From positions 32,001-96,000 of the forward strand of contig CAVPSJ010000016.1 of the NCBI GenBank assembly GCA_963708295.1: a DNA stretch of 64,000 bases, given 5' to 3'. A program made the position numbers and the translations under genes. Each line of letters starts with the position of its first letter. The first letter of the stretch is position 1. Source of the DNA: an uncultured delta proteobacterium (GTDB taxonomy: Bacteria > Desulfobacterota > BSN033 > UBA1163). The notes under the pieces were generated by a model. That model was not told where the DNA came from. It saw nothing but the letters and a program-made list of their open reading frames with translations, and did no database searches. Positions 16,630-55,497 of this stretch are shown here, piece after piece.

Positions 16630-16657
16630 GAGGTCACTTTTCTCTTTGGAGGGAGAC

Positions 16658-28033: not shown

Positions 28034-28975
28034 AGTCGTCATCACCGGTATGGGAATGATTACCCCCCTTGGCGCGACGTTCGCTGAATGTGCTCGGGCA
28101 TGGCGCGAAGGACGATCGGCAGTCCGCCAACCCCTGCCGGAGTTGAATGGCACCCCTCTCGAGGGTGTCGGCGTCCCACCTCTTCCGGACATTAAAGCAG
28201 CTGAGCGCTTAGGCAGTCGTCGGATGCTCAAATACATGTCCCATGCCGCGGTTCTTGGCTGTCTGGCAGGCCGAGAGGCTCTTGAAAATGCCTCTGTAAA
28301 AGCCCGGTTTTCCCCAGAACGGGTAGGACTCTACGCTGGAACTGGGCTGGCGACTGCCGATATCGATGAAGTCAAGGCGATGGTCGAAGCTTCCATTGAT
28401 GAAGGAGGGCAGTTTTCTTGTCGGCTCCTGGGTGAACATGGTCTGGCAGCGACAAACCCGCTTCTCTCCTTCAAGATATTGGCCAACATGCCTCCCTGCC
28501 TGATTTCGATCATCGAATGTATTAAGGGGCCGAACCTTGTCTTCACTCCCTGGGAAGGACAGACGGGTGCAGCCCTTGTCGAAGCATGGAAGGCTGTGGC
28601 CAGCGGAGAGGTCGACTGTGCCCTTGCTGGTGCTGCAGACAACGCGGCTCATCCGGCAACTTTCGTCTATCTCTACCATGCCGGCCTTCTTAGAGGTGAG
28701 GAATATCCTGCTTCGGGTGCCGCTTATTTCGTCTTCGAGAGACGGGAGACTGCTGAGAGGGACGGCAAAAGGATCCACGGTGAAGATCGAACATATTTCA
28801 CTGACCCCTTCTGATGGCAGGAGTGGTCGACCCACTTTCGGAACGTCTTGGCCGGACCTTCGCTGCTGCTCCGGCCATCCTCCTGGGCTTTAATTGCGCG
28901 CAAAGGAAAAGCGAACTCTCCATCTGCGGGGTCGACCAGCAGAGGTTCGAGGTGAGGTTGGAGTTTTTCGTATGA
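28020..28975 (+). CDS. Truncated ketosynthase-fold protein lacking the catalytic Cys (chain-length-factor-like); frameshifted near 28780-28900, 3' end approximate
   Basis: VVITGMGMITPLG, RVGLYAGTG, LANMPPCLISI..IKGPN; TPWEGQT where active KSs have TACxxS/G. Confidence 0.7.
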
Positions 28976-30211
28976 GGAGAGTTGCCATCACCGGGTTTGG
29001 CGTGGTTTCACCCATCGGTGTGGGTAGGGAAAGCTTCTGGGATTCTCTGGCTCGAGGGGTGAGCGGAATTTCTCCGATCACGCATTTCGATGCTACGACT
29101 TTTGAGGTCCAACTGGCGGGGGAGGTGAAGGAAGCATTGGTCGTGCCTGAACCCGTTGAAGAGGTATCGAAAGAAGACCCAAAGGTCGGGTTTGCCTATT
29201 GGGCCTGCGTCGAGGCCCTCTCTCAGGCAGGGATCGCCAGGTTCGATGGAGAGAACGCTTCTTCATGTCGGTACGAGCCTTGAGATCTTCGATCTGAGCA
29301 AAGTCATCTATGATGGAAAGCCCGACTTTAAAACAGTTGCAACAAACATTCTAAAAGGAATAAGCCCTCCTTTGCAGACGCCCCTCGATCAGGCCTCTGG
29401 CTTGCTGATGCGGGAGTTCGGACGCCCTGGGCAGTCCTTGACAAACTGTTCTGCGTGTGCTGCTGGCGCTCAGGCGATTGGACATGGCTTCCATGCGATT
29501 CGCTCAGGCTATTTCGAACGGGCTGTTTGCGGTGGCTTCGATTCGATGATCAATCCCTTGGGGATCGGCGGGTTCCAACTCTTGGGGGCTTTAACCACTG
29601 ACAATCGGCAAGGAGCGCGTGCGTGTCGTCCTTTCGATTCATCACGCAAGGGCACCGTCCTCGGCGAAGGGGCGGCCATGTTTGTCCTCGAGCCTTTGGA
29701 AAAAGCCAGGGCTGAAGGGAAGGAGATTCTTGGAGAAATGGTGGGTTATGGTTCAACGCTCGATGCTTACAGCCTGAGCGCTCCTGATCCGGAGGGAGAC
29801 GGTGCGACAAGAACGATGTTCATGGCTTTAAAGGACGCGGGAATCCCTCCTTCAGAGGTGCACCATATTAACACCCACGGCACAGGAACCCAACTGAACG
29901 ATGAGGTAGAGGCCAAGGCCATCCGAAGGGTGTTTGCTAAAACCTGGGAGAAGATTCCTGTGACTGCCACCAAGTCGATGACAGGCCATCTCATTGCAGC
30001 AGCCGGTCCTATTGAATTGGGAGCATGCCTTTTCACTCTCTTACGGAGAGTTGTACCGCCTAATGTTTCGTTGGAGCGTGTGGCGCAAGGTTGCGAACTC
30101 CATCATGTGGCGGAGCCTGGAATTCCATTCGAGGGGGAATACGTTCTTACCAATTCGTTTGGATTTGGTGGTCAGAACGCTTCGCTGGTATTGAGGGGGT
30201 ACGGTGGCTGA
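28972..30211 (+). CDS. fabF: Beta-ketoacyl-ACP synthase II-like (frameshift near 29250)
   Basis: MRRVAITGFGVVSPIG; CSACAAG, HGTGT and KSMTGHLIAAAG catalytic triad motifs; NSFGFGGQN. Confidence 0.88.
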
Positions 30212-30950
30212 GCAAATAAGACGTATCGCTCTCATTGCAGGAGGAAGTGGTGCCATCGGCTCTGCAGTCGCCAAGAGGCTGGCTTCGGATGGCGTTAGGG
30301 TCTTTGTGGGCTTCTACAAGAATCGCGAAGCGGCTGAGACTGGAGTTTCCAAAATTGCTGCCGCCGGCGGCAATGGAGAGGCAATTCATCTCGATATCAC
30401 CTCCTCTTCTGAGTCCGAGGAGGTGTGTCAGCACATCTTCAGCGGTTGCGGAAGACTGGATATTCTCGTCAACTGTGCTGCCATTAATATGGAGGCACCT
30501 GCATTGGGAATCGAGGACGAAGCATGGAATGGCGTGATGGAGGTCAACTTGACAGGAGCATTCCGTCTCTGCCGGGCAGCCGCGAAATATATGATGCTCA
30601 ATCGCTGGGGCCGGATCATCAACGTCTCTTCCGTTTCAAGCGGGTTCGGTGGCCGCGGCCAGATGAACTATGCCGCCAGCAAGGCAGGTCTTGAAAGCAT
30701 GACACGCGTCCTGGCCTTGGAACTGGGCCGAAAAGGGATCCTGGCCAACTGCGTGGCACCGGGGGTGATCGAGACGAAGATGTCAGAGCGGATCCGCCAG
30801 GCCCATAAAGGGGCACTGGTTGAAGCGATCGCGGTTCGACGTTTCGGCCAACCTGAGGAAGTTGCAAAGGTTGTGGCTTTTATTGCCTCTGATGCCTCAG
30901 CCTATGTCACGGGACAGATCATTCGCGTGGATGGAGGAATGGGCTTGTGA
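30204..30950 (+). CDS. fabG: 3-oxoacyl-ACP reductase (SDR)
   Basis: GGSGAIG, VNCA, GQMNYAASK, APGVIET and VDGG motifs. Confidence 0.88.
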   Translation: MAEQIRRIALIAGGSGAIGSAVAKRLASDGVRVFVGFYKNREAAETGVSKIAAAGGNGEAIHLDITSSSESEEVCQHIFSGCGRLDILVNCAAINMEAPALGIEDEAWNGVMEVNLTGAFRLCRAAAKYMMLNRWGRIINVSSVSSGFGGRGQMNYAASKAGLESMTRVLALELGRKGILANCVAPGVIETKMSERIRQAHKGALVEAIAVRRFGQPEEVAKVVAFIASDASAYVTGQIIRVDGGMGL

Positions 30951-31564
30951 ATCTGACCAACGACTTTCTCCAATTCGTCCGAAGCCGTCGAAGTATCAGG
31001 AAATTCCGAAAGGGTCCTCTCCCGAGGGAAGCTCTTCACCACATGATCGAGGCAGCTAGCTGGGCTCCCTCAGCCAGCAATCGACAGGACTGGGAGTTTA
31101 CCACCATCACTTCCCCCACCATGAAGAAGAGAATGGAAGATATCGTTCGGAGCCGCTGGAAGTTGATCCTCGACAAGAGCCAAACAGGAGCAATCCAGGA
31201 GGAGTTGGAGAAGTATGCGAAGAATTTCGACTGGTTTTCCCATGCCCCCGTGCTTATGGTCGTTTCCGCCAAGAGGCCAGAGGCCTTTCTTTCCAGCCTA
31301 TTGGGTGAAGCAGCTGAGGATGTGGCAGGGACAGTGATCTCTGCGGCCATGGCCGCTCAGAATCTGATGCTGGCGGCCCATGCCATGGGGATCGGAAGCT
31401 GTTGCATTACGGGACCTTTAGCAGCACAAGAGGCTCTGAAGGAGCTTCTCGGGTTCAGCCAGCGGAGGAAAATTGTCTGCCTCGTTGCCCTGGGCTATCC
31501 AGCCGAGGAGCCAGAAGCCCCTCTCCGCAAGGCTGTGGAGAAGATTGCGAGATACATCGAATGA
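30947..31564 (+). CDS. Nitroreductase-family flavoprotein
   Basis: RRSIRKF, APSASNRQDW, AAQNLMLAAHAMGIGSC and LGYP. Confidence 0.9.
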   Translation: MNLTNDFLQFVRSRRSIRKFRKGPLPREALHHMIEAASWAPSASNRQDWEFTTITSPTMKKRMEDIVRSRWKLILDKSQTGAIQEELEKYAKNFDWFSHAPVLMVVSAKRPEAFLSSLLGEAAEDVAGTVISAAMAAQNLMLAAHAMGIGSCCITGPLAAQEALKELLGFSQRRKIVCLVALGYPAEEPEAPLRKAVEKIARYIE

Positions 31565-31959
31565 ACCGGGATGAGGTCGTTCGAGGCGTTTGTGAGTGTG
31601 TCGCTGCTGTCGTGGATGCGGATCCGTCCAACGTTCACGAAGGCCACCGCATTCTTGAAGATCTTGGAGCCGATTCACTGGACCTGCTTGATCTCGTCTT
31701 TCATCTTGAGCAGAGATTCAAAATTAAAATCTCACCGCGCGATATTGAGCGCCGGGCCCAGAAGGAGCTCGGGAGAATCCCGCTCGAAGTGGACGGAGTA
31801 TATACTCCCGAAGCCATCGAGCAGTTGAGAAGGGCCATGCCCGAGGTGCCGCGGGAAGAACTTTCGGAAGGACTCCGCTCGGCAGATCTTCCAAGAAGCT
31901 TTCGCGTGGCGACCTTCGTTCGTCTGGTCGCCCGTCTCATGGAGGAACAGTATGGATAG
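31561..31959 (+). CDS. Extended acyl carrier protein (132 aa)
   Basis: DLGADSLDLLDLVFHLEQRFKIKI phosphopantetheine-Ser motif, then a ~50-aa insertion before FRVATFVRLV. Confidence 0.85.
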   Translation: MNRDEVVRGVCECVAAVVDADPSNVHEGHRILEDLGADSLDLLDLVFHLEQRFKIKISPRDIERRAQKELGRIPLEVDGVYTPEAIEQLRRAMPEVPREELSEGLRSADLPRSFRVATFVRLVARLMEEQYG

Positions 31960-32665
31960 TGTGGCACTGGTGACTGGAGGCAGCGGCGCAGTGGGAGGGG
32001 CCATCGTCCGGCGCTTTTCGCAGGACGGATTTAAAGTGGCCTTCACCTTCCATCATCGCCAGGAACGGGCGGAGCAGCTTCAGAAAGAAACCGGTGCCTT
32101 CGGGTTCCAGGGAGATCTGCTAGATCGGGAACAGGTCAGGGAGATTGTGGAAAAAGTTCTTGAGACCTTCGGGCACATCGACGTCCTCGTCAACAATGCG
32201 GGCCTGACACAGGTGATGCCCTTTGCTTTGATCGAAGAGGAGGATTGGGATCAGATCCTCACGGCCAATCTGAAGACCATGTTCCTGGTCACCAAGGAGG
32301 TCGTCCGGTCAATGATCAAACGCAGGAGAGGAGTGGTGATCAATATCGGTTCCCTAGCAGGGCACCGGCTTCTCGATGTTCCCGTTCATTATGCCACAGC
32401 CAAGGCGGGGGTCAGTGGCTTTACCTTGTCGCTGGCCAAAGAGCTTTCTCGTTACAATATTCGGGTGAACGAGGTGGTGCCGGGTCTCCTTTCAAAAGGC
32501 ATTGGGGAATTGGTCCCCGAGAAAGAAAGAGCCGAATACTTGAGGTATTGTGCGGCAGGGCGTCCGGGTGAGCCGGAGGAGGTTGCAGATTTAGTGGCTT
32601 TCCTCGCAAGCGAAAAAGCACGATATATCAACGCGCAGCCCGTGTTTGTCGACGGGGGAATCTGA
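31952..32665 (+). CDS. Second FabG-like SDR
   Basis: TGGSGAVG, VNNAG, YATAK and VDGG. Confidence 0.88.
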   Translation: MDSVALVTGGSGAVGGAIVRRFSQDGFKVAFTFHHRQERAEQLQKETGAFGFQGDLLDREQVREIVEKVLETFGHIDVLVNNAGLTQVMPFALIEEEDWDQILTANLKTMFLVTKEVVRSMIKRRRGVVINIGSLAGHRLLDVPVHYATAKAGVSGFTLSLAKELSRYNIRVNEVVPGLLSKGIGELVPEKERAEYLRYCAAGRPGEPEEVADLVAFLASEKARYINAQPVFVDGGI

Positions 32666-32666
32666 A

Positions 32667-33110
32667 ATGCGCTGGAGATTCGTGGATAGAATGGAGGCCT
32701 TTGAGCCCTGGACCTTCTTGAGGGGTCGAAAGTCGATTTCTCTTGAAGAGTATTGTCTGCTCGACGCCTTGGGTCGAAAAGGTGTGTTTCCCGAGACCCT
32801 GGCTCTTGAAAGCTGCACTCACCTCGGACGATGGCTCGTCATGAAAAGTTCCGATTTCCTTAAGATCGGCCTTCTTTCCGAGGTTCGTGAGTTTTCTTTT
32901 GCGAATGAGTGTGGCATGGGACAATCTCTGGAGATGACAGTGCGTGTGCAGAAAAAAGAAGAGGGTTCCATCGAAGCAGCATGTGAGGCAACGGCGGAAG
33001 GGAGACCCATCTGCCGGGGAGTCCTGATTCTCGCCTTTAGGGAGCTTGGGGAACTCGTCGATCCTGAAACGATGAGAGCCACGTGGCAGGAACTTTATGT
33101 CAAGACTTGA
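32667..33110 (+). CDS. FabZ-like hotdog protein lacking the catalytic HFP motif
   Basis: MRWRFVDR..GRKSISLEE..VFPETLALES follows the FabZ layout but has no His-Phe-Pro. Confidence 0.7.
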   Translation: MRWRFVDRMEAFEPWTFLRGRKSISLEEYCLLDALGRKGVFPETLALESCTHLGRWLVMKSSDFLKIGLLSEVREFSFANECGMGQSLEMTVRVQKKEEGSIEAACEATAEGRPICRGVLILAFRELGELVDPETMRATWQELYVKT

Positions 33111-34509
33111 CGAGCGGGCGTACACCTATTTTTCGACGGTTCGATCCATGTGCCGCTCTTGCCGGGCGGTCGTTCCTGCCCGGGTCTTTTTCCAGGAAGG
33201 AAAGGTCTGGCAGCAGAACCTCTGCCCTTGCGGCAACAGCCAGCCGGCATTGATCGCAGCGGACAAGGATTGGTATCTGGAAAATATCCTGAGGCCCATC
33301 TCCGATCGCTCTCCGCTCAAGTTATCACACCCGCTGAAGAATGGATGCCCTCATGATTGCGGACCGTGCGCATGGCATGCCACACCCTGCCAGCTTCCTG
33401 TAATTTCGGTGACGAACGCCTGCAACCTGGGCTGCCCCATCTGTTTTACCTACAATCGTCCCGACCGGACCTATTTTATGTCCGTGGAGGAAATGGAACG
33501 AACCGTTGATTGGATCATTGCATCCTCCGATCGAGTCGATTTGATCAATATCACGGGGGGGGAACCGACCCTCCACCCTCGAATCCTCGACCTCCTGCGC
33601 TGCTGCAAGCGGCCTGAGATCGGCCGGATCACGATGAACTCCAATGGTCTCCGCCTCGCAGAAGATCCCGACCTTTGCGAACAACTGGCCGCGTTAGGTG
33701 CCTATGTCATCCTCTCCTTCAATACCTTCGATCCCAAGACAGCCCTCCTTCTTCATGGAAAGGATGTTGTGGAAGAGAAGCTTCAGGCCATTGAAAACCT
33801 CACCCGGGCAGGGGTCAAGATAACCCTTCTTTACGTGATGATGCGCGATACGAATGAGAATGCCCTTGCGGGGATCCTTGATTTGATAAGGACCAACGAT
33901 CAGATCTTGAGCCTCACGGTTCAGACCATGACCTATACGGGCCAGGGGGGTGGCTATTGGCCCCTTCGTCAACCTATCCCCGTCGATGAGGCGGCACGCA
34001 TGGTGTGCCAGCAGTCCGGTGGTGCATTTGTCTTCTCGGATTTCCTCCCGCGACCGTCGAGCCATCCGTTGTGCTATCTGACATGTTATGTGCTCAAGTC
34101 AGGGCGGACCTTTCTGCCCTTTGCAAGGTTCGCTCCCGCCGAGAAGATCCTTTCCCTCATGAAAGACTCCTATCTGATCCGCCTTGGCGACGAGGAGGAT
34201 TTTTTCAGGGAGGCCATCAACCGGCTCTATTCGGAGGGGAAAACAGAGCCCTTGAAACTATTTCGGGAATTGATCGAAGCGCTCTATCCTCGCAACCGGG
34301 ACATCAGCATCTTTGAGCGTCAGCGGCTTGCGGAGTCGTCGGTTCGTACCATTTACATTCATGCCCATATGGATGAGGACACCTTCGACTGCTCCCGTGC
34401 CATGCTCTGTCCGGACCTCGTGCCGGCAGAACCGGGCAGGCTGATCCCGGCCTGCACGTATAACCTTTTCTACCGGATGAAGGATGAGAGGTTTTATGTT
34501 AACCGATAA
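33097..34509 (+). CDS. Radical SAM enzyme, tetraether synthase (Tes/GDGT-MAS, MJ0619)-like, paralog 1
   Basis: SMCRSC...CPC N-terminal site; GCPHDCGPCAWH; CNLGCPIC; TGGEPTLHP; SHPLC; HMDEDTFD..R...C...GRLIPACTYN. Confidence 0.8.
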   Translation: MSRLDERAYTYFSTVRSMCRSCRAVVPARVFFQEGKVWQQNLCPCGNSQPALIAADKDWYLENILRPISDRSPLKLSHPLKNGCPHDCGPCAWHATPCQLPVISVTNACNLGCPICFTYNRPDRTYFMSVEEMERTVDWIIASSDRVDLINITGGEPTLHPRILDLLRCCKRPEIGRITMNSNGLRLAEDPDLCEQLAALGAYVILSFNTFDPKTALLLHGKDVVEEKLQAIENLTRAGVKITLLYVMMRDTNENALAGILDLIRTNDQILSLTVQTMTYTGQGGGYWPLRQPIPVDEAARMVCQQSGGAFVFSDFLPRPSSHPLCYLTCYVLKSGRTFLPFARFAPAEKILSLMKDSYLIRLGDEEDFFREAINRLYSEGKTEPLKLFRELIEALYPRNRDISIFERQRLAESSVRTIYIHAHMDEDTFDCSRAMLCPDLVPAEPGRLIPACTYNLFYRMKDERFYVNR

Positions 34510-35066
34510 AGATAAAGCGAAGCGGAAAGCAGAGAGGGATGCGCTCCAAACCTACTGCAAAGGCAGCCAGAATCGTCCCTTTGTTCTGGAACGCAACGAT
34601 GCCTATTATGTCTGCGAGGTCCTCTTTCCGTCCATCCTTGACCACATCCGAATCCCCATTCGGTGTCTGATGGTGGGCATCGTGAATGCAGTACCCATTT
34701 CGGCTCTTAAAGCTCTTCTTCTACCGCGTGCTTGGAATGAAGATCGGGAAGGGAGTCTATATCGCTCCTGAGGTATTGATGGATCCGCTCTACCCGTGGC
34801 TGATCGAACTCGAAGATGACTGTTTTCTCGGAATGGGATGCAAGATCTTCACCCATGAGTACACCGCGACCTACTTCAGGATAGGTCGTGTGCGGATCGG
34901 AAGAGGTTCGGTCATCGGAGCCTACTCGATCATACGCTCCGGAGTGACGATTGGAGAAAGAGTGACCGTGGGGTTCAACAGTTACGTCAATAAAGATATT
35001 GGCGATGGCGAGACCGTGGGCGGCGTTCCAGCCAACCCTTTAAGACGGAGTCCGGGAAGAGGATAA
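34496..35066 (+). CDS. Hexapeptide-repeat acyltransferase, YvoF-like (frameshift near 34710)
   Basis: YRVLGMKIGKGV...IFTHEY...RIGRVRIG..SVIGAYS.IRSGVTIG...GGVPA left-handed beta-helix. Confidence 0.8.
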
Positions 35067-36079
35067 TGGGGTTTCTTGTAAATTATCTGGAAAACGTCGT
35101 GTCCCTTGGATTCCGAAGAGAGCCCGCCCGCCCTCTCCTCTTCTCGTACTATGTCACCCATCGCTGTGAGCTGAACTGTCGCTATTGCTGCGATGGGGAT
35201 GGAAAACGGTTCAAAGAGGATCCCGTCCCCGAACTCTCGGTGGATGAAGCGGCCAGGCTCTTCTCTGTCGTTAGAAGGGCTTGTGACACATTGGATATCA
35301 CGGGTGGGGAGCCGATGGTGCGGGAAGACCTGGAAGAAATACTTGCCTGTGCCCGCCAGATGGGATTCAGAACGGTTCTCAACACAAAAGGGATCGGGTT
35401 GAACGATCGACCCGACGTCATGCGACTTACCGATGTCCTTGTTCTCAGCCTCGATGCCATGGACCCGGAAGCTCTCTCAGAAGTGATCGGACGGCCAAAG
35501 GCGACGGCTGAGAAGATCATCGAGGCCGTTCATTTCGCCCTCTCCAAGAGAAAGGAGACCGGAACAAAGCTTGTCTTCACTGCTGTCGCCACCCCCGCCA
35601 ACCTGACCGGAGTATGGGAAGTACTCCGCTTTGCTTCAAAACATTCCGTTGCCTTTAATGTTTCTCCGGAGATCGTTGGCACCACCGTCCATTCGAAGCT
35701 TCGCGATAATTCCGATTACGATCATCTGATTGCAGAGGTGATCATGGCGAAGAGAGAAGGGTCGGGGATCCTTGGGGTCCCGCGTTATCTTCAGAGGATC
35801 CGGGATTTTGGCCCCTTCCGTTGCTACCCCCTTCTGATGCCGACGATCAGACCGGACGGGAGGATGTATTATCCTTGCCTTGAAAGCAAACGAGCTGAGG
35901 TCAGCCTCCTCGAGGCGGGAAGTTATCCCACGGCCTTGAAGGCAGCCCGTGAACGTGCTGGAGATCTCCCGGACTGCAAGGATAGCTGCCATCTCTTCTG
36001 CCATATGGCGATCTCCCTCTATCAGCGACATCCTTTTTCTGCGCTGGGGGAAATCAAACAGTGGAGGATAAAATGCTGA
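35066..36079 (+). CDS. Radical SAM protein with C-terminal Cys-rich (SPASM/Twitch-like) domain
   Basis: CELNCRYC, TGGEP, SLD; C...RPDGRMYYPC...CKDSCHLFC. Confidence 0.85.
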   Translation: MGFLVNYLENVVSLGFRREPARPLLFSYYVTHRCELNCRYCCDGDGKRFKEDPVPELSVDEAARLFSVVRRACDTLDITGGEPMVREDLEEILACARQMGFRTVLNTKGIGLNDRPDVMRLTDVLVLSLDAMDPEALSEVIGRPKATAEKIIEAVHFALSKRKETGTKLVFTAVATPANLTGVWEVLRFASKHSVAFNVSPEIVGTTVHSKLRDNSDYDHLIAEVIMAKREGSGILGVPRYLQRIRDFGPFRCYPLLMPTIRPDGRMYYPCLESKRAEVSLLEAGSYPTALKAARERAGDLPDCKDSCHLFCHMAISLYQRHPFSALGEIKQWRIKC

Positions 36080-37098
36080 GGCAGATTTCACAGGAACTCC
36101 ATTACCAGCACCGATCCTTGAGGTTGGGTCTCGCTTTCTTCCGCCGCCGCTTGCTCCATTGCAATCTACAGGTGACTTACCGTTGTAATTTTCACTGTCA
36201 GATCTGCGACTTCTGGAAGGAACCTCACGATCCCTCCGATGAACTGACGGTGGAGCAGATCCAGAGGATTGGCAAAAACCTCAACCGTTTGGGCACCCTG
36301 GTCATCTCCCTTGGCGGAGGTGAGCCACTCATCCGCCAGGATCTCTATCAGGTGATCGCCGTGCTCAATAAAACCAACCATTTCCCAATCCTCATCACGA
36401 ACGGTTGGTTCGTGAATGAAACCATAGCCAAAGACATCTTGCGGGCGGGTCTGCAAGAGATCTCGGTTTCCGTCGACTACGCGGATCCGGCCAAACACGA
36501 TGCCCAACGCGGGCGCGTCGGTGCTTGGGATCGTGCCATCAAAGCGCTTGAGCTGCTCAACCGTTATCGTCCTGACCGCCGTCATCGAGTCCACATGATC
36601 ACGGTGCTGATGGACGACAACCTTGAGGAAATCGAACCCCTCCTCCAGCTCTGTCGAGATCTCGGGGTGACTTACTTCATCAACCTCTATTCCTCCGGCC
36701 GTGGAACAAAACCATGCCGTGCGCCAGACGGAAACGTTAGCGATAAACTCCTGGAGCTCAAAACCAGGTACCCTGAGTTCATCTCGTTGACATCCTACGT
36801 GGGGCAGTTCGATCAAGCGATCGCTGAAGGCGGTATCGGCAACTGCCACGCGGGAACTCTCACGTTTAATATCGGAAGCCGGGGCGAGGTCTCACGGTGT
36901 ATCGATACGATCGACGAGCCGGTTGGGAACATTTTGACGGACGAGATCACAGACCTCCGCGACCGACTTCAAACGGCGCAGGAAAAGGGAAGCTGCGCGC
37001 ATTGTTGGACCTCATGCCGGGGCTCTGTCGAGTCTTTATACAAGCCGCCACGAGTCCGCCAGTTCCGGGAGTTCTGTGTCTCGGTGAAGAGGCATTGA
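36073..37098 (+). CDS. Radical SAM/SPASM protein
   Basis: CNFHCQIC, GGGEP, TNG and HDAQRG; CHAG...GEVSRC...CAHCWTSC. Confidence 0.87.
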   Translation: MLRQISQELHYQHRSLRLGLAFFRRRLLHCNLQVTYRCNFHCQICDFWKEPHDPSDELTVEQIQRIGKNLNRLGTLVISLGGGEPLIRQDLYQVIAVLNKTNHFPILITNGWFVNETIAKDILRAGLQEISVSVDYADPAKHDAQRGRVGAWDRAIKALELLNRYRPDRRHRVHMITVLMDDNLEEIEPLLQLCRDLGVTYFINLYSSGRGTKPCRAPDGNVSDKLLELKTRYPEFISLTSYVGQFDQAIAEGGIGNCHAGTLTFNIGSRGEVSRCIDTIDEPVGNILTDEITDLRDRLQTAQEKGSCAHCWTSCRGSVESLYKPPRVRQFREFCVSVKRH

Positions 37099-38513
37099 TG
37101 GAAACTCTGGGGATGACTCAATCGACCTGCAGCGTCTGCCGCGCCGTCATTCCCGCTAAGATCGTCACGGACGGACAGGAGTGTTTACTTCCATAAGTTC
37201 TGCCACGACCATGGCGAATCCCGCATCTTAATCTTCGGTGATCTTCCTCAATTACCTCCGAACGCTCAGATATGTGAAACCGGCGTGGGAACCCAAGACG
37301 TTCGTGGGCGACGCCAGGGCCAGGTGTCCGGAGGGGTGCGGGTTCTGCGAGCGGCATGAACAGCACCTCTGCATGCCAATCATTGAGATTACGAATCGGT
37401 GTGACCTGGTCTGCCCTGTCTGCATCAATGCGTCAGGCAGAGAATTCGACGGGAACTTCAACTCCATGGGATCTCTCGCTTCATGAGTTCCGCACCTTCT
37501 CGATGTGATCCTTGAAGCAGAGCGCCAGGTCGATGTCCTCAATCTATCAGGCGGTGAGCCGCTTCTTCATCCGCGGCTCCTTGATATGATCGACGAAGCC
37601 CTGTCAAGAAAGGAAATCGTTCGGGTCAGCCTCTCCACCAATGGTCTTCGATTCCGAGACGAACCCCGCCTCCTTCAGGAACTCCACAGGCGTCACGTGG
37701 TCATCTCACTGCAATTTGATGGCTTCAATGAAACGATCTACGAGACCCTTCGCGGAAAACCAATGCTTCGGAAGAAACTTGAGATCCTTGACATGCTGAA
37801 AGATTGTGGGATAACGACGTCGCTGACTATGACCGCTGGCGGAGAGGTGAATGACGACCAGTTCCCCCCAATGCTCGATTATCTCTTCGGACATGACCAT
37901 GTGGTCAGTCTGATGGTGCAACCTGTAGCTTTTGTGGGCCGCGGAGGCGCCATGCCACAATAAGGTCAAACGCCTCACGGTTCCCGATGTCGTCCGCCTC
38001 CTCGAGAAAGCAGGCCATCCAGCCGTCAAGGCAGATGACTTTGTGCCTCTGCCCTGCAGCCATCCCCTCTGCTTCAGCCTGGCCTTCTATCTCATGCTCG
38101 ACAGCGGAGGCGTCGTCTCCGTAAGCAGGCTTACAGATGCCGCAACGCTGATGGATTCTCTCTCGAACCGTGTTGTTTTTGGACTCGATCTGGATGAACA
38201 CGAAAGGCTGAAGCAAATGATCTACGACCTCTGGAGCGGGCCGTCAGGAGCGGTTCCGGAGAACAAGGCGGTCCTCGAGACGCTTCGCAATATCCTCAAA
38301 AAGATGTCCCAGACCTGCTGCGGTCCTTTTAATCCACGACAGGCCTTCACGCTTGCAGAGCGAAAGGTAAAGTCGATCTTCATCCATGCGTTCCAGGATG
38401 CGGAAACCTTTGATCTGACTCGGGTCCGGCGGTGCTGCCAGGCCTATCCGCAGCCCGATGGGAAACTTATTCCTGCTTGTGTCCACAACGTCCTGGGGAG
38501 GGAAAGGCGGTGA
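37098..38513 (+). CDS. Tes/GDGT-MAS-like radical SAM enzyme, paralog 2 (several frameshifts)
   Basis: Joined frames give TQSTCSVC...KFCHDHG; CPEGCGFCERH; CDLVCPVC; SGGEPLLHP; LQFDG; CSHPLC; FQDAETFDLTRVRRCC...DGKLIPACVHN. Confidence 0.78.
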
Positions 38514-38572
38514 AGATCCTTTGGGTCATTTGCCCGAGCTGCTACGCCGGGCATCTTCTGAAGAGGAGAGCG

Positions 38573-40065
38573 ATGATTTTCTATACGCGGAATACCTATC
38601 TCGATCATAACGCGACAACGCCCGTTGCGAAGGAAGTGCGAAGAGCGATGGAACGTGTACTCAAGAAGATCCCCGGAAATGCATCGTCCCTTCACACCCA
38701 TGGACGGACCGCACGCGGGCTGGTGGACCAGGCCCGGAGATCGGTTGCTGCGCTTCTCGGATGCCCACCCGAACAGGTGATCTTTACTTCCGGTGGAACC
38801 GAGGGAAATAATGCAGTGATCAAAGGCGTGTTTGCCGAATCCGGGAAGGGCCATATCATTACATCAAAGATCGAGCACGAATCCGTTCTCGGAGCGTGCG
38901 AACAGGTGGAGAAGATGGGTGGAGAGGTCACCTACCTCTCCGCCGGCAGAGACGGGCTCGTCCGCCTCGAAGATGTGAAGGCCGCCATTCGCCCGGACAC
39001 GATCCTGGTCTCGATCATGCACGGCAATAACGAGACCGGCGCGATTCAGCCAGTCGAGGAGATCGGACGGATCTGCCAAAGTACCGGAATTCCATTTCAT
39101 ACCGATGCCGTTCAGACGTATGGAAAGATCCGGACGAATGTGGATGAACTGGGTTGCGAATTCCTCACGCTGACAGCGCACAAAATCAACGGTCCCAAGG
39201 GAGCAGGGGCCCTCTACTGGCGCGGTAAGACGAAATGGAACCCTCTGGTCTATGGGGGCGACCAGGAACAAAAGCTACGGGCGGGCACGGAAGGCGTTCA
39301 CCAGATCGTGGGTCTGGGTGCGGCAGCGGATTTGGCACGAGGTCGAATGGAACAGGAACTGCCCAGGCTCTGGGAACTTCGGAGACAACTTCTTCAGGGG
39401 CTGAGAAAGATCGTCCCCGATATCCGGGTCAATGAAGCGCCTCCGGACCGGCAGCTTCCTGGGACCATCAATCTTACTTTTCCGGGAAAGGAGGGCGTTC
39501 GAATTCTGGCCGGCCTCGACTGTTATGAGATCAGCGTATCGATCGGGTCAGCTTGCACCGCCGACCGGGTTGAGCCTTCCCACGTGCTCCTGGGAATGGG
39601 ACTGAGTGAGAAGGAGGCCCTTTCGTCGATTCGCATCAGCATGGGGACAACGACAAGACCTGCAGATGTCCGCTACTTGCTGGCAGTCCTTCGAAGAAGT
39701 CCTGAAAGGTGACCCTGCAGGCTTTTCGTACCTTGATCCCCAGCACCTTACCGAAGAGCGAATCCGTTCCGAGAAGACCTTTCTGATCGATCTTCGGTTT
39801 CCCTACGAGCGGATGCTGTCTCCCACCATTCCTGGCGCAGCAGGAGTGGTCGCATATCTATTTTGAGAGATATCTGAAGCGGATACCCTGGGACAAAGAG
39901 GTGATCATGATGTGTGGCACCGGAATCTTTTCCTTCTCGGCGGGATACCGACTTGCCAGAGCGGGTCATCCGGCTGTTCGGGTCGTTTACGGCGGGTATG
40001 CGGCGTGGCACGGCCTTTACCCTGAACTCATTCACCGCTTAAGAGGGGGACCGCCTTCGGGTTAG
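38573..40065 (+). CDS. Cysteine desulfurase (IscS/NifS type) fused to a C-terminal rhodanese domain (two frameshifts near 39690 and 39840)
   Basis: YLDHNATTP, FTSGGTE, HTDAVQ, AHKINGPKG and GSACT; then LIDLR...IPGA...EVIMMCGTG...VYGGYAAW rhodanese motifs ending at TAG 40063-40065. Confidence 0.8.
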
Positions 40066-40123
40066 GGCAACCGCATCGTATCCGCTGGTCAGACGAAACG
40101 ATATCCGGCGGGCCGCTTTTTTC

Positions 40124-40750
40124 CTATACCAGGAATGGAATAAACCTGTATCGCACCCGCTTCATGTATTCCCGATACTCCGGCTGCTGAATGAGAAATC
40201 GCTCTTCAAGGATCGCCCGGTAGACGTAACATGCTGTCGAGATAATGAAAACAAGCACGGTAAAAAGGTTGAAGTGACTCATCAGGAAGCCCACACGCAG
40301 GAGGATATCGGTCGCATACATGGGATGCCTGACGATCCCGTAAAGACCACGCGATTTCAGTCTGCGGAACGCGATCAGGATGCCGAAACTGCGTCCGAGG
40401 TTTAACAGCGTAGCGACGCCGAGCACATTCGCGCAAAAAATGACCACCTGCGAGATCTGCTTTGCCACCTGGGGCCCCGTTGCCGGTTGTCCCATAAACG
40501 CTGCTCCGGAACAGAACGCAATGATCGCAATCGCTTGATGCAAGAGGTTTGTCTGAATCAACTGATGGGGTTTACGAATGAGAAAGATAACGGCGAGCAG
40601 CAGACTTTGAATGGTAAAACTGATTTCCACATACCCGAGCGTCCCCTTAAGATGGTATTGGTAAGTCTGCCAGATCCCCCACCCGGCGAAATTGAGAAAT
40701 AGGTAGATATTAAGAAGGGATTGCCAGTGTTTTTTGAAAAACGCTTCCAA
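40124..40750 (-). CDS. Isoprenylcysteine carboxyl methyltransferase (ICMT/PEMT)-family membrane protein
   Basis: LGRSFGI...GLYGIVRHPMY...RAILEERFL...YREYMKRVRYRFIP, multiple TM segments. Confidence 0.85.
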   Translation of the reverse strand: MEAFFKKHWQSLLNIYLFLNFAGWGIWQTYQYHLKGTLGYVEISFTIQSLLLAVIFLIRKPHQLIQTNLLHQAIAIIAFCSGAAFMGQPATGPQVAKQISQVVIFCANVLGVATLLNLGRSFGILIAFRRLKSRGLYGIVRHPMYATDILLRVGFLMSHFNLFTVLVFIISTACYVYRAILEERFLIQQPEYREYMKRVRYRFIPFLV

Positions 40751-40905
40751 TCGATTTTCGTTCCGATAGGATACCGCAGGCTAAAGCTTGCAGCTACAAA
40801 GAGAATATCACAATACAACGTCCTGAGTCACGCCTGACTGCTTAACCACCCGTTGCATCAATAAAAATCTAGAAACCGCATTTTCATTTCAACCTCAGGG
40901 TTGAA

Positions 40906-41901
40906 TTACGGGATCAGTGGCGACAGCGCATGGGCAAGCCGGATTATTTCAGGGCCATTCAACCAACTTGACGCGGATACATGCGATAGCAGCGATGTCA
41001 ACACCAACCGGTGGTCTTTGTTGCGATGGCACGTCTCAAGTTCAGAGAAAAGGCGTTCTGCCTGCGCCGCCGGAACAACTTGATCGTGCCGGTCGTGAAT
41101 GAGCGTCACCGGACAGTCGAGATGCTCCAGATTGCCAGCGGGGGAAAGTTTCTTGAGCACCTCCGGCTCCTGGAAAACGCTTGAATACTTCCGTATCGAG
41201 GTCATGGAGATAGCGAATCATAAAAACGTCGTTTTTCTTCCAAAGACGCTTCGGAACAATATCGGTCGAGCAGCATTTCGATTTCCTGCCAGACCTCCTG
41301 AGAAAAAGCAACAGCATCCCGTCGCCCATAAAGAAAGACAAGCCGTTGATGGATGGCCTCGTCCCATTCCGTGTCGCTCTGTGGCTCGCGTTCCAGGTTC
41401 AGGGCATATCCTTCCAGAACATCTGATAAGTTATGATACGCGCCGAGCGTGATGACCCACGGAATGTGCTTTGATACTTCGAGGTGACCCGCCACGATGA
41501 GCGCGTAACTTCCGCCAAAACTAAACCCAATCAACCCCACCGGCTGGTGAATCGTGTCGGCGGTGAGGGCCACGACGTTTGCGAGTTCGTCCAGGTCGGA
41601 TGTCTCCCATCGACAGGATGCCAGTCCCCCGAGGGTCGGGACCACACAGGTGGTCCCAAAGTGCGCCGCGGTGCGGGCAAAGTGGATCAGTCGTGGGTCC
41701 TGTCCGCCTTTGAGGGTCACCCCGTGGACAGCAACGCAGGCAGCCAATGTTCTATGTTGATGCTGGTAGACCGACCATGCGCGTCCCCGATGAAGAGCAT
41801 TCCTGATGTTCTACAACCGAGGGATCTGGAGGGCGCTGGTTTCCCCTCCATGCTAACCGCGCCAGAAAAGCGTGCGATTTGATGAGTCTCAATAATCCCA
41901 T
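40906..41901 (-). CDS. Alpha/beta hydrolase (frameshifts near 41790 and 41215)
   Basis: VHG, GFSFGG nucleophile, IHDRHDQVVP and LLSHV across three joined ORFs. Confidence 0.7.
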
Positions 41902-41905
41902 GGGA

Positions 41906-43313
41906 TCAGTGCGTGATGCGTTCTCCGCCGCGATGGACGACATTATACGCGCATGTGGGCATCAGTCTTCCATCCGCGAGCATCGTGCGGCTGATGCACA
42001 TTTTGGCGCGCCCGATATCGAAGTTCAATCCATCCATGTAGGAATGGACGAGCACCACCTTGACCAGGTTTTGACTGCGGGCTTTGAATTCCTCGAGAGA
42101 GAGTGCGCCCGCAACCGGAAATAACATATCAATGAGATGGCGAATCGCCGCCAGTCCCTTTACCGTATCCGGATCCTTCTTCCCGCTGGCCCAAAGTCTA
42201 TTGACCACATCGCGGAAGAGACTCTCAAGTTCGGCGTTCAACACCAAAAGCGCTTTATTCGAGATGAGGGCTTGATAGTCTAGAGGGTCTAAGAACCGTT
42301 TCAGCGGAATGAACCCGCCGTCAGGCAGAGGCAGATGGTAAGCAATCTGCAGACATTCAGGATGCGAGAAGGACACGGGAGAAAAATCCGAAGCCAAAAT
42401 CGTTCCACCGGTTTGCGCCTCCAGGCGGATCAGGACATCCTGGGCGGTGATGCGGTGTTCTCTGCCATGGTCGAAACGGCTGCCTTTGCCTATATAAGCC
42501 ATGGTCGCAATATCCAGCGTGCCAATGGAGGGATCCGTTAGAAACATTTCGTAGAGTTTGCCAAGTTCGTGGTCGTTGATTCCGCCAACGATGGTTGGGC
42601 AAAGTCCGACTTTCGAGCCGGCGGTTTTGAGGACCGTCAGCGCCCGTCTCTTCTCGTCCAAAAGAGCTTTTCCTCTGAGCGTCGAGTAGATGCCGTCCGA
42701 GAAGCCATCCCATTGCAACACGACATAGAGGTTTTCTTTCGCCATTCGGCTGGCAAAGTTAGGATCGCCGGCAATCCGCTGGCCATTGGTGTACACCCAG
42801 ATGTCTTCGAATCCAAACTGTTTGAGCAGTCTCACAAGATCGAAGAAATGAGGGTGCACGGTTGGTTCTCCGCCACCCAACGTCACGATTTGCCCTGGTC
42901 CGGCATAGGCCAGAATGGCTTTTACCATGGATTCCATCTCGGCAATGGATACGAAATGGCCGTGTTTGTCAGGACTTCCAAGACAGATTGGACAATTGAG
43001 ATCACAGGCATTGGTAATCTCAAAGAGGAAGAAGGCTGATTTCTGCCGGTGTCCAGCACATTCTCCGCAGTCCAGAGGACATCCTTTGGCCATGACGGTC
43101 TGCCGGCTCGCCGGCGTAACCGTCTGAGCGGAGAAGGACTGTAAGCTCCGTAACCAATCGTAATCAGCAGGCGATGCGCGTTTTAAAAGAACCGTGATCT
43201 GGACAAAACTTCTCATGATGTACCCCTTGTTCATCCTCAACCAGGTCGGCCGTCAGTAAGCGGTGGCAGACCGGGCAAATACTTGCACGCGACTGATGAA
43301 AAATGCGTTTCAT
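41906..43313 (-). CDS. Tes/GDGT-MAS-like radical SAM enzyme, paralog 3 (frameshift near 43170)
   Basis: ATG 43313 gives MKRIFHQSRASICPVC...KFCPDHG; then GCPLDCGECAGH; CDLNCPIC; GGGEPTVHP; LQWDG; SHPEC; YMDGLNFDIGRAKMC...DGRLMPTCAYN. Confidence 0.8.
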
Positions 43314-43410
43314 TTTCGCCCCTCCAAGAGTTTCTTAACTTTTCAGGGTATGTTATCCCGGATCTTTCATAAGAGTTTATCCATGTCCGTTTTTGCGACT
43401 GGCGGTTATC

Positions 43411-44748
43411 TCACACTCCCGGTTTTTTGATTCGAGCCGGTTTTGCGCGTACCGGCGTCGTGATAGATGTCTGGCACACCCTCAACGGTTCTAACTGAGA
43501 TGAGGTTCTCAGTTGCGCGTAAGTCGAATTCGACTCACACAAATGAAGGTCCACCGCTTCCGAATCCGCTGTTTCGCCGTCAAGGTAGAGGGTATACCCT
43601 CTACGATTCTGTCCAGAATGACTCTCAGACGTCAAGAAGTATTTCAAACTCAGGATGCCGCTTTTACGGACTGCTCTCACAACCTCGTCTTCAGTAAGCC
43701 AATCGCCTCCCAGGTCAAAGCTCCGGCAATCGCGTCCGTGAATTTTTATGACGGGCGGTCTGAGGCTGATGAGAGAAACCACGTCACCGGTTTGATAGTT
43801 CCACAGTCCGCCCGGAGTTGTAACACAGAGCTTATACTTCTGGTTGAGAGCCACGGTTCCAAGGCCTGCGATTTGGCCTTTTCTGTCCATGGGAAGAAAC
43901 GTAAAGAACACTCGTCGATAATTTAGCAGAAATACTCCTGCAGATTGGGGCAGACCATACGTCCCTTCATTCGAGCCATAGACATCCACCACAGTAGCAT
44001 TCGGGAAGGCTGACTTATAAAGGTGGGCTTGGTCTACCGCCCAGTAACCACAATTGAAGACAATTTGCACGTCAGGTAGCACGATGTCTGTGGCGAGGGT
44101 AAAGGCAACGATTTCTATCGGATTGCCGGCAATTACCGTGACCCGGTGACGGAGTGCAAGGTCTGCAAGCCGAGTGAAATTGGGAGGTTCTTCCTGCTCA
44201 GGAAGATCCTTGTAAGTGGGAAGAAACCTGCTCCTGAAGGTTTGTAAATAGGCAAAGGGTGTACCTTCGGCATAGACTGTCCATCGACCCAAGGGCCGTC
44301 CCTTTCTGGGGCCAATATACAATGTCTTGCCATGCTGCCAGGACAGAGAGCCATGCTGCAAGCCGCCAAGGAGCGCCGCGTCGACCGCCGTACTCCGTGT
44401 GCTTCTGAGGATCGCACGACTCAAGGGAATCAGTTTCGGCATAGCCTCCGTTCCTGATGTCATTTCGAAGCACTCGGGTCTGCCCGCAAAGAGCACATCG
44501 TCTTCACCTGCGATGATTGCCTCGATACTCGTTCGGAAATCATCGTAAGATTTTGGCGGCACCCGCTCCAGAAAATCCTGGTTTTTTTGAATCGAGGCAA
44601 AATCGTGCTCCTTGCCGAAGGCTGTTTCTGCGCTCCTCTTCACCAGTCGAAGCAAAAGCTTCTTCTGGGAAACGAGCGGATCAGCATTCAAGAGCTGCCA
44701 CTTCCGTAACGTGGCAAGAGCCAAAAGAAACCGGTTTTCGATAGCCAT
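43411..44748 (-). CDS. GH3-family acyl-adenylate/amide ligase
   Basis: TAFGKEHDF, MTSGT..PKLIP, YGSNEG and TTPGGLWNYQTGDVV GH3 motifs. Confidence 0.8.
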   Translation of the reverse strand: MAIENRFLLALATLRKWQLLNADPLVSQKKLLLRLVKRSAETAFGKEHDFASIQKNQDFLERVPPKSYDDFRTSIEAIIAGEDDVLFAGRPECFEMTSGTEAMPKLIPLSRAILRSTRSTAVDAALLGGLQHGSLSWQHGKTLYIGPRKGRPLGRWTVYAEGTPFAYLQTFRSRFLPTYKDLPEQEEPPNFTRLADLALRHRVTVIAGNPIEIVAFTLATDIVLPDVQIVFNCGYWAVDQAHLYKSAFPNATVVDVYGSNEGTYGLPQSAGVFLLNYRRVFFTFLPMDRKGQIAGLGTVALNQKYKLCVTTPGGLWNYQTGDVVSLISLRPPVIKIHGRDCRSFDLGGDWLTEDEVVRAVRKSGILSLKYFLTSESHSGQNRRGYTLYLDGETADSEAVDLHLCESNSTYAQLRTSSQLEPLRVCQTSITTPVRAKPARIKKPGV

Positions 44749-46999: not shown

Positions 47000-47178
47000 T
47001 TGACCGGAGCGTGCCCCGTCCCGCCAAAGCGGGATAGGCGGGGTTAAGGGGCGCAATATGAATGAAATTTCCTTTGCTCACATTCTGTTCGCCACTGGCG
47101 TGCCCGGGAAGCTCTTCGACATGCTCAGAGCCGGGAGCTTTCGTCGAACGGCCCCGCCCTGTGGGCGGCGAGCTTCAA
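47000..47178 (+). mobile_element. IS200/IS605-like palindromic element, copy 2, with nested CTTCGAC-type repeat
   Basis: TTGACCGGAGCGTGCCCC...TGCTCACATTCTGTTCGCCACTG..GCCCGGGAAG [insert] CCCCGCCCTGTGGGCGGCGAGCTTCAA. Confidence 0.6.
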
Positions 47179-47180
47179 TT

Positions 47181-55415: not shown

Positions 55416-55497
55416 CTGACCTCCGCCTCCATTAGGGTGAATATATGGTTATCGTATCATAGCTTTTTTGAGGTATCGAAGGGTGCGGATTTATAGC

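Follow-up and report, generated by a model that had tools for sequence, protein, structure and literature searches.

A pair of tetraether synthase-like radical SAM genes in a fatty-acid-synthase-like cluster of an uncultured Desulfobacterota bacterium

Introduction

The archaeal tetraether synthase (Tes, or GDGT-MAS; MJ0619) links two phytanyl chains of archaeal ether lipids end to end. Branched tetraether lipids, which serve as climate proxies, have been ascribed to its bacterial homologues, none of which has been characterised. What, then, do the bacterial copies do? The question is raised by a 64,000-nucleotide stretch of DNA from an uncultured delta proteobacterium (assembly GCA_963708295.1, contig CAVPSJ010000016.1, positions 32,001 to 96,000; the whole stretch is called the window below), in which three divergent Tes-like paralogs, here P1, P2 and P3, lie within a run of lipid-type genes at ~28.0-44.9 kb. 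An original prediction, made from the letters of the window, held that the three carry complete but differently tuned metal-binding motifs and represent either three specialised C-C-forming steps or a heteromeric enzyme, with acyl-ACP rather than archaeol as the substrate. The locus is a testable lead to the role of the bacterial copies of tetraether synthase, and the evidence on each of these proposals is presented here.

Results and Discussion

The three paralogs are members of the GDGT-MAS/Tes superfamily

The three genes and their motifs are as follows.

33097-34509, + strand: P1, Tes/GDGT-MAS-superfamily radical S-adenosylmethionine (SAM) protein, 470 amino acids, intact; CRSC..CPC, CPHDCGPCAWH, CNLGCPIC, SHPLC, HMD..FD..R..C..GRLIPACTYN
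37098-38513, + strand: P2, Tes-superfamily radical SAM protein, 470 amino acids in relatives, five frame changes; CSVC, CHDH, CPEGCGFCERH, CDLVCPVC, SHPLC, FQD..FD..R..CC..GKLIPACVHN
41906-43313, - strand: P3, Tes-superfamily radical SAM protein, 468 amino acids in relatives, N-terminus out of frame; CPVC..CPDH, CPLDCGECAGH, CDLNCPIC, SHPEC, YMD..FD..R..C..GRLMPTCAYN

P1, P2 and P3 are full-length members of the GDGT-MAS/Tes radical SAM superfamily. For P2 and P3, which are broken in the window (see below), orthologs were taken from L057, a metagenome locus that carries an intact relative of the cluster and was used as the reference for gene lengths. When the Protein Data Bank (PDB) was searched with phmmer, the GDGT-MAS structure 7TOL was matched by P1 at E 2.9e-41, by the P2 ortholog (L057:9134-10543) at 8.4e-43 and by the P3 ortholog (L057:14095-15498) at 6.4e-53; the next matches, which were limited to the radical SAM core, came at 3e-5 or weaker for P1 and at 3e-8 (MoaA) for the P2 ortholog, with none up to 1e-6 for the P3 ortholog. 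The Pfam model of the MJ0619 N-terminal zinc ribbon, PF23545, matched P3 at 43167-43334 (5.8e-14). AlphaFold (AF2) models of P1 (pLDDT 88, pTM 0.90) and of the intact P3 ortholog (pLDDT 86, pTM 0.89) were aligned by Foldseek with 7tol and 7tom over 492-496 columns, with TMq values of 0.81-0.82 and 0.77-0.78, respectively, and the next fold, SkfB, reached 0.36. Both models match the four-domain fold of GDGT-MAS, including the C-terminal cluster/lipid-binding domain. The kinship to MJ0619 that had been proposed is a specific one, borne out by the phmmer search, by PF23545 and by the predicted fold.

In GDGT-MAS the ligands of the mononuclear iron are C9-X2-C12...C33-X2-H36 and those of the N-terminal cluster are C73, C77, C80 and a His; the enzyme also has a CX3CX2C SAM cluster and a C-terminal cluster with a labile Met439 (Lloyd et al. 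2022, PMC9433317). When the published ligands were mapped (PDB chain numbering equals native numbering plus 20 residues, by our own count on the P1-7TOL alignment), C9/C12/C33/H36, C73/C77/C80 with the His, and CX3CX2C all fell on conserved residues. In a joint alignment of 48 P1-, 52 P2- and 44 P3-family sequences, the first three Cys of site 1, the CxxxCxxCxxH residues, the SAM-cluster Cys, the Cys of SHPxC, which aligns with SSHQHC of MJ0619, and two C-terminal Cys were 98-100% conserved in all three families. The five motif classes described in the original prediction are indeed present in each paralog, and to call them complete but differently tuned is fair at the level of sequence. P2 does read FQD where P1 has HMD and P3 has YMD. 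As its fourth ligand, site 1 has His in the P2 (94%) and P3 (100%) families and Cys in 79% of the 48 P1 rows, the P1 of the window having the CPC variant, and each family has invariant Cys of its own (P1 C98; P2 C91, C319 and C446; P3 C238). Judged by its residues, site 1 keeps the rubredoxin-type ligand pattern. All four metal sites of GDGT-MAS would be retained, namely a Cys3His site at the N-terminus (of Cys4 type in P1 proteins), the auxiliary [4Fe-4S] site of CxxxCxxCxxH, the SAM cluster and a C-terminal site in which the SHPxC Cys and two further Cys would be joined by a His in place of the labile Met.

The paralogs thus share with GDGT-MAS/Tes (7TOL, 7TOM; NCBIfam NF045702) their length (468-470 amino acids), their domain order, the full-length fold (TM 0.77-0.82), the N-terminal CxxC..CxxH, CxxxCxxCxxH and CxxxCxxC SAM-cluster motifs and the C-terminal Cys ligands. 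They differ from it in the Cys that replaces His in site 1 of the P1 family, in occurring as a P1/P2 pair rather than as a single gene, and in their bacterial fatty-acid-synthase (FAS)-like rather than archaeal ether-lipid context. None of them is a Tes equivalog, because they score under half the NCBI cut-off, the Met439 position holds His, and Tyr459 is kept in P2 alone.

P1 and P2 are an obligate pair

Among loci fetched with P1 or P2 queries, a P2-type gene was present in 20 of the 20 P1-anchored loci with at least 1500 nt of downstream sequence. Of the P2-anchored loci, all 23 whose upstream sequence spans 4500 nt or more have a P1-type gene (35 of 36 at >= 1500 nt). A P3-type gene was found in five of the 115 loci fetched in all (L057, L058, L059, L071 and L107). 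A maximum-likelihood tree (IQ-TREE quick, LG+G4) was built from 86 rows, which covered 30 of the 115 loci, 11 P3-family proteins and 16 generic matches; its root is arbitrary, and it holds no verified TrsS and, since the proteins named 'tetraether lipid synthase' by JGI (P0206 and P0218) scored just 260-261 bits, no verified Tes. A branch with an SH-aLRT of 100 separated each of P1 (19 rows), P2 (17) and P3 (14). P1 stood with copies from metagenome-assembled genomes (MAGs) labelled Myxococcota, P2 was nested in generic bacterial Tes-like proteins and P3 formed a long branch, and groupings of loci recurred in both the P1 and the P2 subtrees. We conclude that P1, P2 and P3 are anciently diverged lineages and that P1 and P2 are an obligate pair.

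A predicted complex of the P1 of the window with the P2 ortholog of L057 gave ipSAE values of 0.86, 0.87 and 0.86, against 0.00 for the best of three controls, with a contact agreement of at least 95% between runs and a partner pLDDT of at least 83; in the calibration of this score, 58 of 80 solved complexes came up to that mark, as did 2 of 110 mismatched pairs. The predicted interface is made by the N-terminal zinc-ribbon and auxiliary-cluster domains of both proteins and by the FD(C) region. The models argue that P1 and P2 probably form a heterodimer. Of what had been proposed, the heteromeric enzyme stands, computationally and for P1 with P2, on strict co-occurrence, shared subtree groupings and the ipSAE of 0.86, whereas three specialised steps are not shown: P3 sits in a separate and much rarer module. 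One large branch of the bacterial homologues is a conserved pair whose members are predicted to bind each other and which is tied to a dedicated ketosynthase/acyl carrier protein system.

More distant clusters (33-39% identity to P1; L036, L037, L038, L040-L043, L046, L048 and L050, from Myxococcota- and other-labelled MAGs) also have multiple paralogs as a rule: two or three Tes-like genes, separated by 6-8 kb and in many cases on opposite strands, lie near genes for FabG and nitroreductase.

The surrounding cluster and its proposed function

The genes accompanying the paralogs are listed below, with occurrence counted over the 23 P1 loci that have enough flank on both sides.

28020-28963, + strand: KSa, ketosynthase-like, N-terminal ketosynthase (KS) domain only (Pfam ketoacyl-synt; 319 amino acids in L057; 23/23 loci); frame break near 28784-28820
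28972-30211, + strand: KSb, FabF-like ketosynthase with N- and C-terminal KS domains (Pfam; 412 amino acids in L057; 23/23 loci); frame break by one extra base near 29251
30204-30950, + strand: FabG1, short-chain dehydrogenase / ketoreductase (KR) (Pfam adh_short_C2, 4e-62; 10/23 loci)
30947-31564, + strand: nitroreductase-family flavoprotein (Pfam Nitroreductase, 6e-40; 20/23 loci)
31561-31959, + strand: acyl carrier protein (ACP), 132 amino acids with a C-terminal extension of ~50 (Pfam PP-binding, 39.6 bits, cut-off 20.8)
31952-32665, + strand: FabG2, ketoreductase (Pfam adh_short, 2e-51; 23/23 loci)
32646-33110, + strand: hot-dog dehydratase (DH), distantly FabZ-like (NCBIfam FabZ, 35 bits, cut-off 113; 22/23 loci)
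34484-35066, + strand: hexapeptide-repeat acyltransferase (Pfam Hexapep; one gene of 193 amino acids in L057; 13/23 loci), split by an extra base near 34713
35066-36079, + strand: rSA, generic MoaA/PTO1314-like radical SAM protein (Pfam Radical_SAM and NCBIfam; 10/23 loci)
36061-37098, + strand: rSB, radical SAM/SPASM-type protein (Pfam and NCBIfam; 11/23 loci)
38570-40065, + strand: NifS-like cysteine desulfurase-rhodanese fusion (Pfam Aminotran_5 and Rhodanese; 496 amino acids in L057; 6/23 loci), frame breaks near 39687 and 39839
40124-40750, - strand: membrane methyltransferase, ICMT/PEMT type (Pfam PEMT and ICMT; ICMT in 5/23 loci)
40906-41904, - strand: alpha/beta hydrolase, three frame changes by extra bases near 41171, 41217 and 41772 (330 amino acids in L057; 3/23 loci)
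43411-44748, - strand: GH3-family acyl-adenylate / amide synthetase (Pfam GH3 and GH3_M; 3/23 loci)

On the NCBIfam models KSb scored 300 bits for fabF (cut-off 494) and 200 bits for AmcF (cut-off 325), the methyltransferase 39.5 bits for isoprenylcysteine methyltransferase (cut-off 160), and the GH3 enzyme 92.5 bits for its nearest model, the lyso-ornithine lipid synthetase OlsH (cut-off 620). The L057 ortholog of the hydrolase matched Pfam Abhydrolase_6 at 26.4 bits, and the Pfam scan gave no match for the dehydratase. By a strict pattern, an open reading frame (ORF) with a GxDS(L) motif lies upstream of FabG2 in 10 of the 23 loci. The ORF of 85 amino acids listed at 31571-31828 (+) is spurious, being in another frame and overlapping the ACP gene.

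P1 and P2 appear to belong to a conserved type II fatty-acid/polyketide-like cluster that comprises a truncated KS-like partner, a FabF-like KS, ketoreductases, the hot-dog dehydratase, a nitroreductase-type flavoprotein and a dedicated ACP, often with two more radical SAM enzymes. Tes-type enzymes abstract H at an unactivated terminal carbon and join two terminal carbons via a C-S bond to the C-terminal cluster (PMC9433317; review PMC13459092). By analogy, P1 and P2 would carry out radical chemistry on the unactivated hydrocarbon tail of an acyl chain built by the cluster; a C-C bond would form via an intermediate bound to cluster sulfur, the tail might be modified either on the ACP or already in a lipid, and the reaction could be coupling, cyclisation or sulfur insertion. 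We infer such tail modification because the Tes-like pair is tied to the KS/KS-like/KR/DH/ACP set. P3 lies in a divergently transcribed add-on module together with the OlsH-like GH3 amide synthetase, the alpha/beta hydrolase and the membrane methyltransferase, which suggests that it acts on, or helps to build, a derivatised (amino-)lipid. As for the substrate of the pair, the neighbouring KS, KR, DH and ACP genes point to acyl-ACP as a candidate, and phospholipid-bound acyl chains would be an equal candidate because GDGT-MAS binds whole phospholipids. On balance we lean, with some reserve, towards a P1/P2 pair in a FAS-like cluster that performs radical chemistry on lipid tails, with the frame breaks discussed below being artefactual.

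Several observations pull the other way. The only full-length NCBIfam matches of the paralogs are Tes (NF045702; cut-off 450 bits), with 169 bits for P1, 211 for the P2 ortholog and 223 for the P3 ortholog, and TrsS (NF045646; cut-off 490 bits), with 170, 259 and 259 bits, so that TrsS equals or exceeds Tes for all three. Met439 and Tyr459 are invariant across 1000 archaeal homologues (Lloyd et al. 2022, PMC9433317). At the position of the former there is an invariant His (P1 H422, P2 H429, P3 H423; contexts IHAHMD, IHAFQD and VHSYMD, respectively) in our own ungapped reading of the alignment, anchored on the D..FD motif; at the latter P1 has Leu, P3 has Thr and P2 has Tyr, with CCQAY matching CCIHY of MJ0619. 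The predicted P1-P2 surface might also be a family-wide dimer interface that serves homodimers. The genes rSA, rSB and NifS and the P3 module each occur in just 3-11 of the 23 loci and thus lie outside the core. Finally, the chemistry is an analogy, since there is no experiment on any bacterial Tes homologue as far as PMC11868695 and PMC13459092 report.

Three further readings of the cluster were weighed. The paralogs could be bacterial membrane-spanning-lipid synthases, which would couple the tail ends of two phospholipid-bound acyl chains to give diabolic- or iso-diabolic-acid or branched-GDGT (brGDGT)-type lipids; the FAS-like genes would then just supply a special precursor, and something other than the ACP would carry the substrate. 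Whole phospholipids are bound by GDGT-MAS, which is co-purified with those of Escherichia coli (PMC9433317), the models retain the full-length fold including the C-terminal domain, and this is the role proposed for the bacterial homologues, including those of 110 of 684 Planctomycetota MAGs, by Zeng et al. 2022 and the Black Sea study, although by the published accounts it is without a test in any bacterium. The strict linkage to KS, KS-like, KR, DH and ACP genes exceeds the needs of an enzyme that remodels membrane lipids, however; archaeal Tes acts alone whereas the two paralogs here are always paired, the family-invariant Met439 and Tyr459 are altered, and the cluster is rare: of 300 other genomes sampled from the phylum to which a Planctomycetota-labelled MAG belongs, 5 have it. 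We consider this role unlikely for the present pair.

A small natural product or cofactor is a second alternative. Here a KS/chain-length-factor (CLF)-type, polyketide-synthase-like system would make a short ACP-bound chain, which the Tes-like pair would cyclise, cross-link or thiolate, with the NifS-rhodanese protein as sulfur donor and the GH3 enzyme conjugating the acid to an amine. The 200 bits of KSb on the model of cispentacin AmcF and the weak match of the dehydratase to AmcE point in this direction, but both scores are under their cut-offs. KSa lacks the whole C-terminal catalytic domain, like the chain-length-factor-like partners described in a preprint on the anammox FabF heterodimer, and Tes chemistry goes through a bond between substrate carbon and cluster sulfur (PMC9433317). 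The NifS-rhodanese fusion directly follows P2, yet NifS is present in 6 and GH3 in 3 of the 23 loci. Surveys with antiSMASH list 'ladderane-type' clusters of unassigned function in Desulfobacterota, Myxococcota and Planctomycetota (PMC9902471), and chain length cannot be read from sequence. We regard a natural product of this kind as rather improbable.

The third reading, which is bolder and to which we attach a low probability, is that P1-P2 is an obligate heterodimeric descendant of Tes, re-tooled by the His for the labile Met and by the Cys4 first site of P1, that forms C-C bonds at the tails of the acyl chains which its own KS/CLF-ACP system builds. The whole would be a mobile, cross-phylum lipid cassette for membrane-spanning or carbocyclic bacterial lipids and, if so, a candidate genetic source for part of the unexplained bacterial pool of brGDGT-type lipids.

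Whatever the product, the cluster can be cloned as a defined unit of ~10-17 kb (in its intact L057 form, for instance), in which the substrate, the product and the roles of the metal sites can be tested. A match to a 'Tes homologue' in a survey may not mean tetraether synthesis, because the three paralogs fail the curated cut-off and depart from the invariant Met and Tyr (the Tyr being kept in P2).

Comparison with known systems

P1-P3 are very probably the same proteins as the 'bacterial Tes homologues' of Zeng et al. 2022 and of the Black Sea MAG survey of 2025, which counted homologues in Planctomycetota and other phyla, their function being unconfirmed. As far as these two accounts go, they do not describe paired paralogs, a KS/KR/DH/ACP cluster, a third-paralog module or a heterodimer. 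We found no account in the literature of paired Tes-like genes in a FAS-like cluster, and none of their altered ligands, of a predicted P1-P2 heterodimer or of the module of the third paralog, although the supplementary tables (Table S2 of Zeng et al. 2022, Tables S8-S9 of the Black Sea study) may list the genes. Counts of bacterial Tes homologues, the FAS-plus-radical-SAM clusters of 2009 and the occurrence of 'ladderane-type' clusters in many phyla (PMC9902471) are already in print.

TrsS is the best or equal-best full-length NCBIfam match of all three paralogs; they nevertheless score under its cut-off and have no selenocysteine. In a selenoproteome review TrsS is merely listed, with no known function. 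The sole experimentally supported tail-coupling enzyme of bacteria, as presented by Sahonero-Canavesi et al. 2022, is the membrane-spanning lipid synthase Mss, likewise a radical SAM protein, whose proposed role is to couple the tails of two fatty-acyl chains. By its description Mss belongs to another radical SAM lineage and is set apart from P1-P3, and in the genomes of Thermotoga and Thermoanaerobacter that bear Mss those authors reported no homologue of Tes.

The anammox 'ladderane' candidates (Kuste3603-3608 and Kuste3335-3352) resemble the cluster in gene content: according to published descriptions, they too have radical SAM enzymes (Kuste3342/3343; Desulfotalea DP1853/DP1855) next to FAS II-like genes, among them a non-canonical KS partner, a dedicated ACP and a FabZ-like dehydratase. 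Synteny of FAS-plus-radical-SAM clusters between a planctomycete and a deltaproteobacterium was noted in 2009. Anammox cluster I (Kuste3603-3608) is described as having a B12-binding radical SAM protein and a phytoene-desaturase homologue beside amxACP, amxFabZ and the FabF pair, and neither B12-binding nor amine-oxidase/phytoene-desaturase domains were detected in the cluster proteins scanned with Pfam. A type II KS-CLF system consists of an active KS (Cys-His-His), an inactive KS-like partner and a dedicated ACP. Set against these features, KSb has both KS domains, KSa has the N-terminal one only and the ACP has a PP-binding domain, with the catalytic residues read by eye.

Frame breaks in P2, P3 and their neighbours

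P1 is an intact ORF of 470 amino acids. The N-terminal frameshift that had been reported in P3 was confirmed; the zinc-ribbon N-terminus is out of frame with the body of the protein because of one extra base near 43169. The breaks in P2 had not been reported. P2 has no single ORF in the window, and its pieces lie in three frames separated by five single-base changes: compared with intact orthologs there are extra bases near 37182, 37250, 37442 and 37955, and one base is missing near 37492, so that the P2 motifs of the original prediction had been drawn from different frames. A TGA at 37484-37486 in P2 was considered as a selenocysteine codon and rejected, as it lies in the out-of-frame stretch between the changes near 37442 and 37492, which reads as in the orthologs after frame correction.

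Seven genes are affected in all (KSa, KSb, the acyltransferase, P2, the NifS-rhodanese gene, the hydrolase and P3). The metagenome loci L057, L058, L059 and L071 have the same gene order with 80-91% protein identity (~84% nucleotide), although the sequence of L058 begins inside rSB. All four have P2 in a single frame and P3 likewise, KSb is so in L057, L059 and L071, and L057 has an unbroken gene for the acyltransferase, for the NifS-rhodanese fusion and for the hydrolase.

The breaks are probably consensus errors of a long-read assembly. Compared with L057, the window has ~15 single extra bases and 2 uncompensated missing bases, a strong insertion bias. No nonsense substitution was found in ~5,200 frame-corrected codons, both stops that were seen being in out-of-frame stretches, and the dN/dS values of the broken genes (0.144 and 0.105 for pieces of P2, 0.137 for P3) are like those of the intact neighbours (0.075-0.19). 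Assembly error is the likelier cause because of these three findings. Among the matches listed, moreover, a public contig of 92% identity is without the base at 37954, and near-identical short public contigs have one or two gaps against the window in 37032-37374.

The opposite view is that P2, P3 and the five neighbours are true pseudogenes in a newly acquired island that is undergoing inactivation by frameshift. What speaks for decay is where the changes fall. There are ~17 frame changes in the 17 kb of the island, five of them within 0.8 kb of P2, as against none in rpoB, rpoC and dnaE and one in uvrA; the density of indels in the island (~15 in 17 kb) is ~20 times that seen outside it, with one in ~15 kb of those four genes and one, in an aldehyde:ferredoxin oxidoreductase (AOR) gene, in the other 37 kb of the window, for which no systematic check was made. 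The island is also missing from 13 of 14 congeners, hence selection for it may be weak. Among public sequencing runs, the best contained 0.12 of the sampled words, so that none came to one half, and no RNA run was listed. Against decay, the absence of nonsense changes holds despite ~15% nucleotide divergence from L057, and insertions outnumber deletions ~15 to 2; the equal dN/dS values and the public contigs count in the same direction, and the assembly is of the long-read type, with 20 contigs of up to 1.17 Mb. True inactivation therefore seems unlikely to us, with the indel density leaving room for very recent real decay. A comparison of ORF coverage between the genome and the loci was uninformative, the control loci being much GC-richer.

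Two breaks lie outside the cluster. The uvrA gene (G000:C14:129388-132134, in the source genome) is split in two frames at ~131065, which fits sporadic assembly indels; rpoB, rpoC and dnaE are whole. The AOR gene at 47181-49005 (-) consists of two overlapping ORFs (AFOR_C positions 3-210 and 176-385), and, together with the adjacent zinc alcohol dehydrogenase gene, it has a ~71% nucleotide match to genomes of the same class and not to most congeners.

Host genome and origin of the cluster

The source genome (G000) has 4.95 Mb in 20 contigs, the longest of 1.17 Mb, and the window is C16:32001-96000. The host is a Syntrophia-like Desulfobacterota genome, whose rpoB has 87% identity to proteins labelled Syntrophaceae, Thermodesulfobacteriota or 'Deltaproteobacteria'. 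Synteny with congeners covers the flanks of the cluster, at 14001-18357 (up to ~18.4 kb) and again from ~45.0 kb (~45005); between these points nothing in the congeners matches the window, which leaves an accessory region of ~26 kb. The GC content of the cluster is 0.54-0.57, compared with 0.47-0.52 for the contigs, and two canonical fabF genes lie elsewhere in the genome. Repeats of ~75-230 nt at 18364-18517, 20822-21048, 47000-47180 and 55287-55660 flank the accessory region, and copies with 80-93% identity are present on many G000 contigs and in genomes of the same genus. A mis-binned contig was ruled out, since the repeats at 18364-18517, 47000-47180 and 55287-55660 are shared with other G000 contigs and congeners and both flanks are syntenic with congeners.

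At E <= 1e-20, 13 of 14 same-genus genomes and all of 26 further relatives gave no match; among these 40, one congener alone matched the P3 query, which in G000 cross-matches P1 and P2. An ortholog of P1 at E <= 1e-120 was found in none of 300 other genomes of the host phylum and in 5 of 300 others sampled in the phylum of one Planctomycetota-labelled MAG, and the P1 orthologs of 60-74% identity come almost all from MAGs labelled Planctomycetota. Given the syntenic flanks, the repeats at the edges, the raised GC content and the canonical fabF genes elsewhere, we conclude that the cluster is an accessory unit that was acquired horizontally; even the phylum that has it most often has it in few genomes. 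The paired branch of Tes homologues has been exchanged between phyla. As to a link with anammox bacteria, in a 1.9-Mb MAG labelled Brocadiaceae that carries P1 and P2 (G041, the source of L010; completeness not given), no match to Pfam HZS_alpha was found.

Some smaller features of the cluster may be added. The stop TGA of rSB and the start ATG of P2 share one base (37096-37100), and the start of P1 falls 14 nt within the dehydratase gene (33097-33110); from these overlaps, translational coupling along the operon is suggested. The dehydratase gene is locally hypervariable at 32664-33000, with many compensated indels, and its product has 79% identity to that of L059 but 55% to that of L057, although L057 and L059 are otherwise near-identical; the pattern suggests recombination in this gene. 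Two more tandem ketosynthase pairs are present in the genome, at G000:C15:301414-304945, where a radical SAM match adjoins the pair, and at G000:C4:228309-230998, and both may belong to other unusual lipid clusters.

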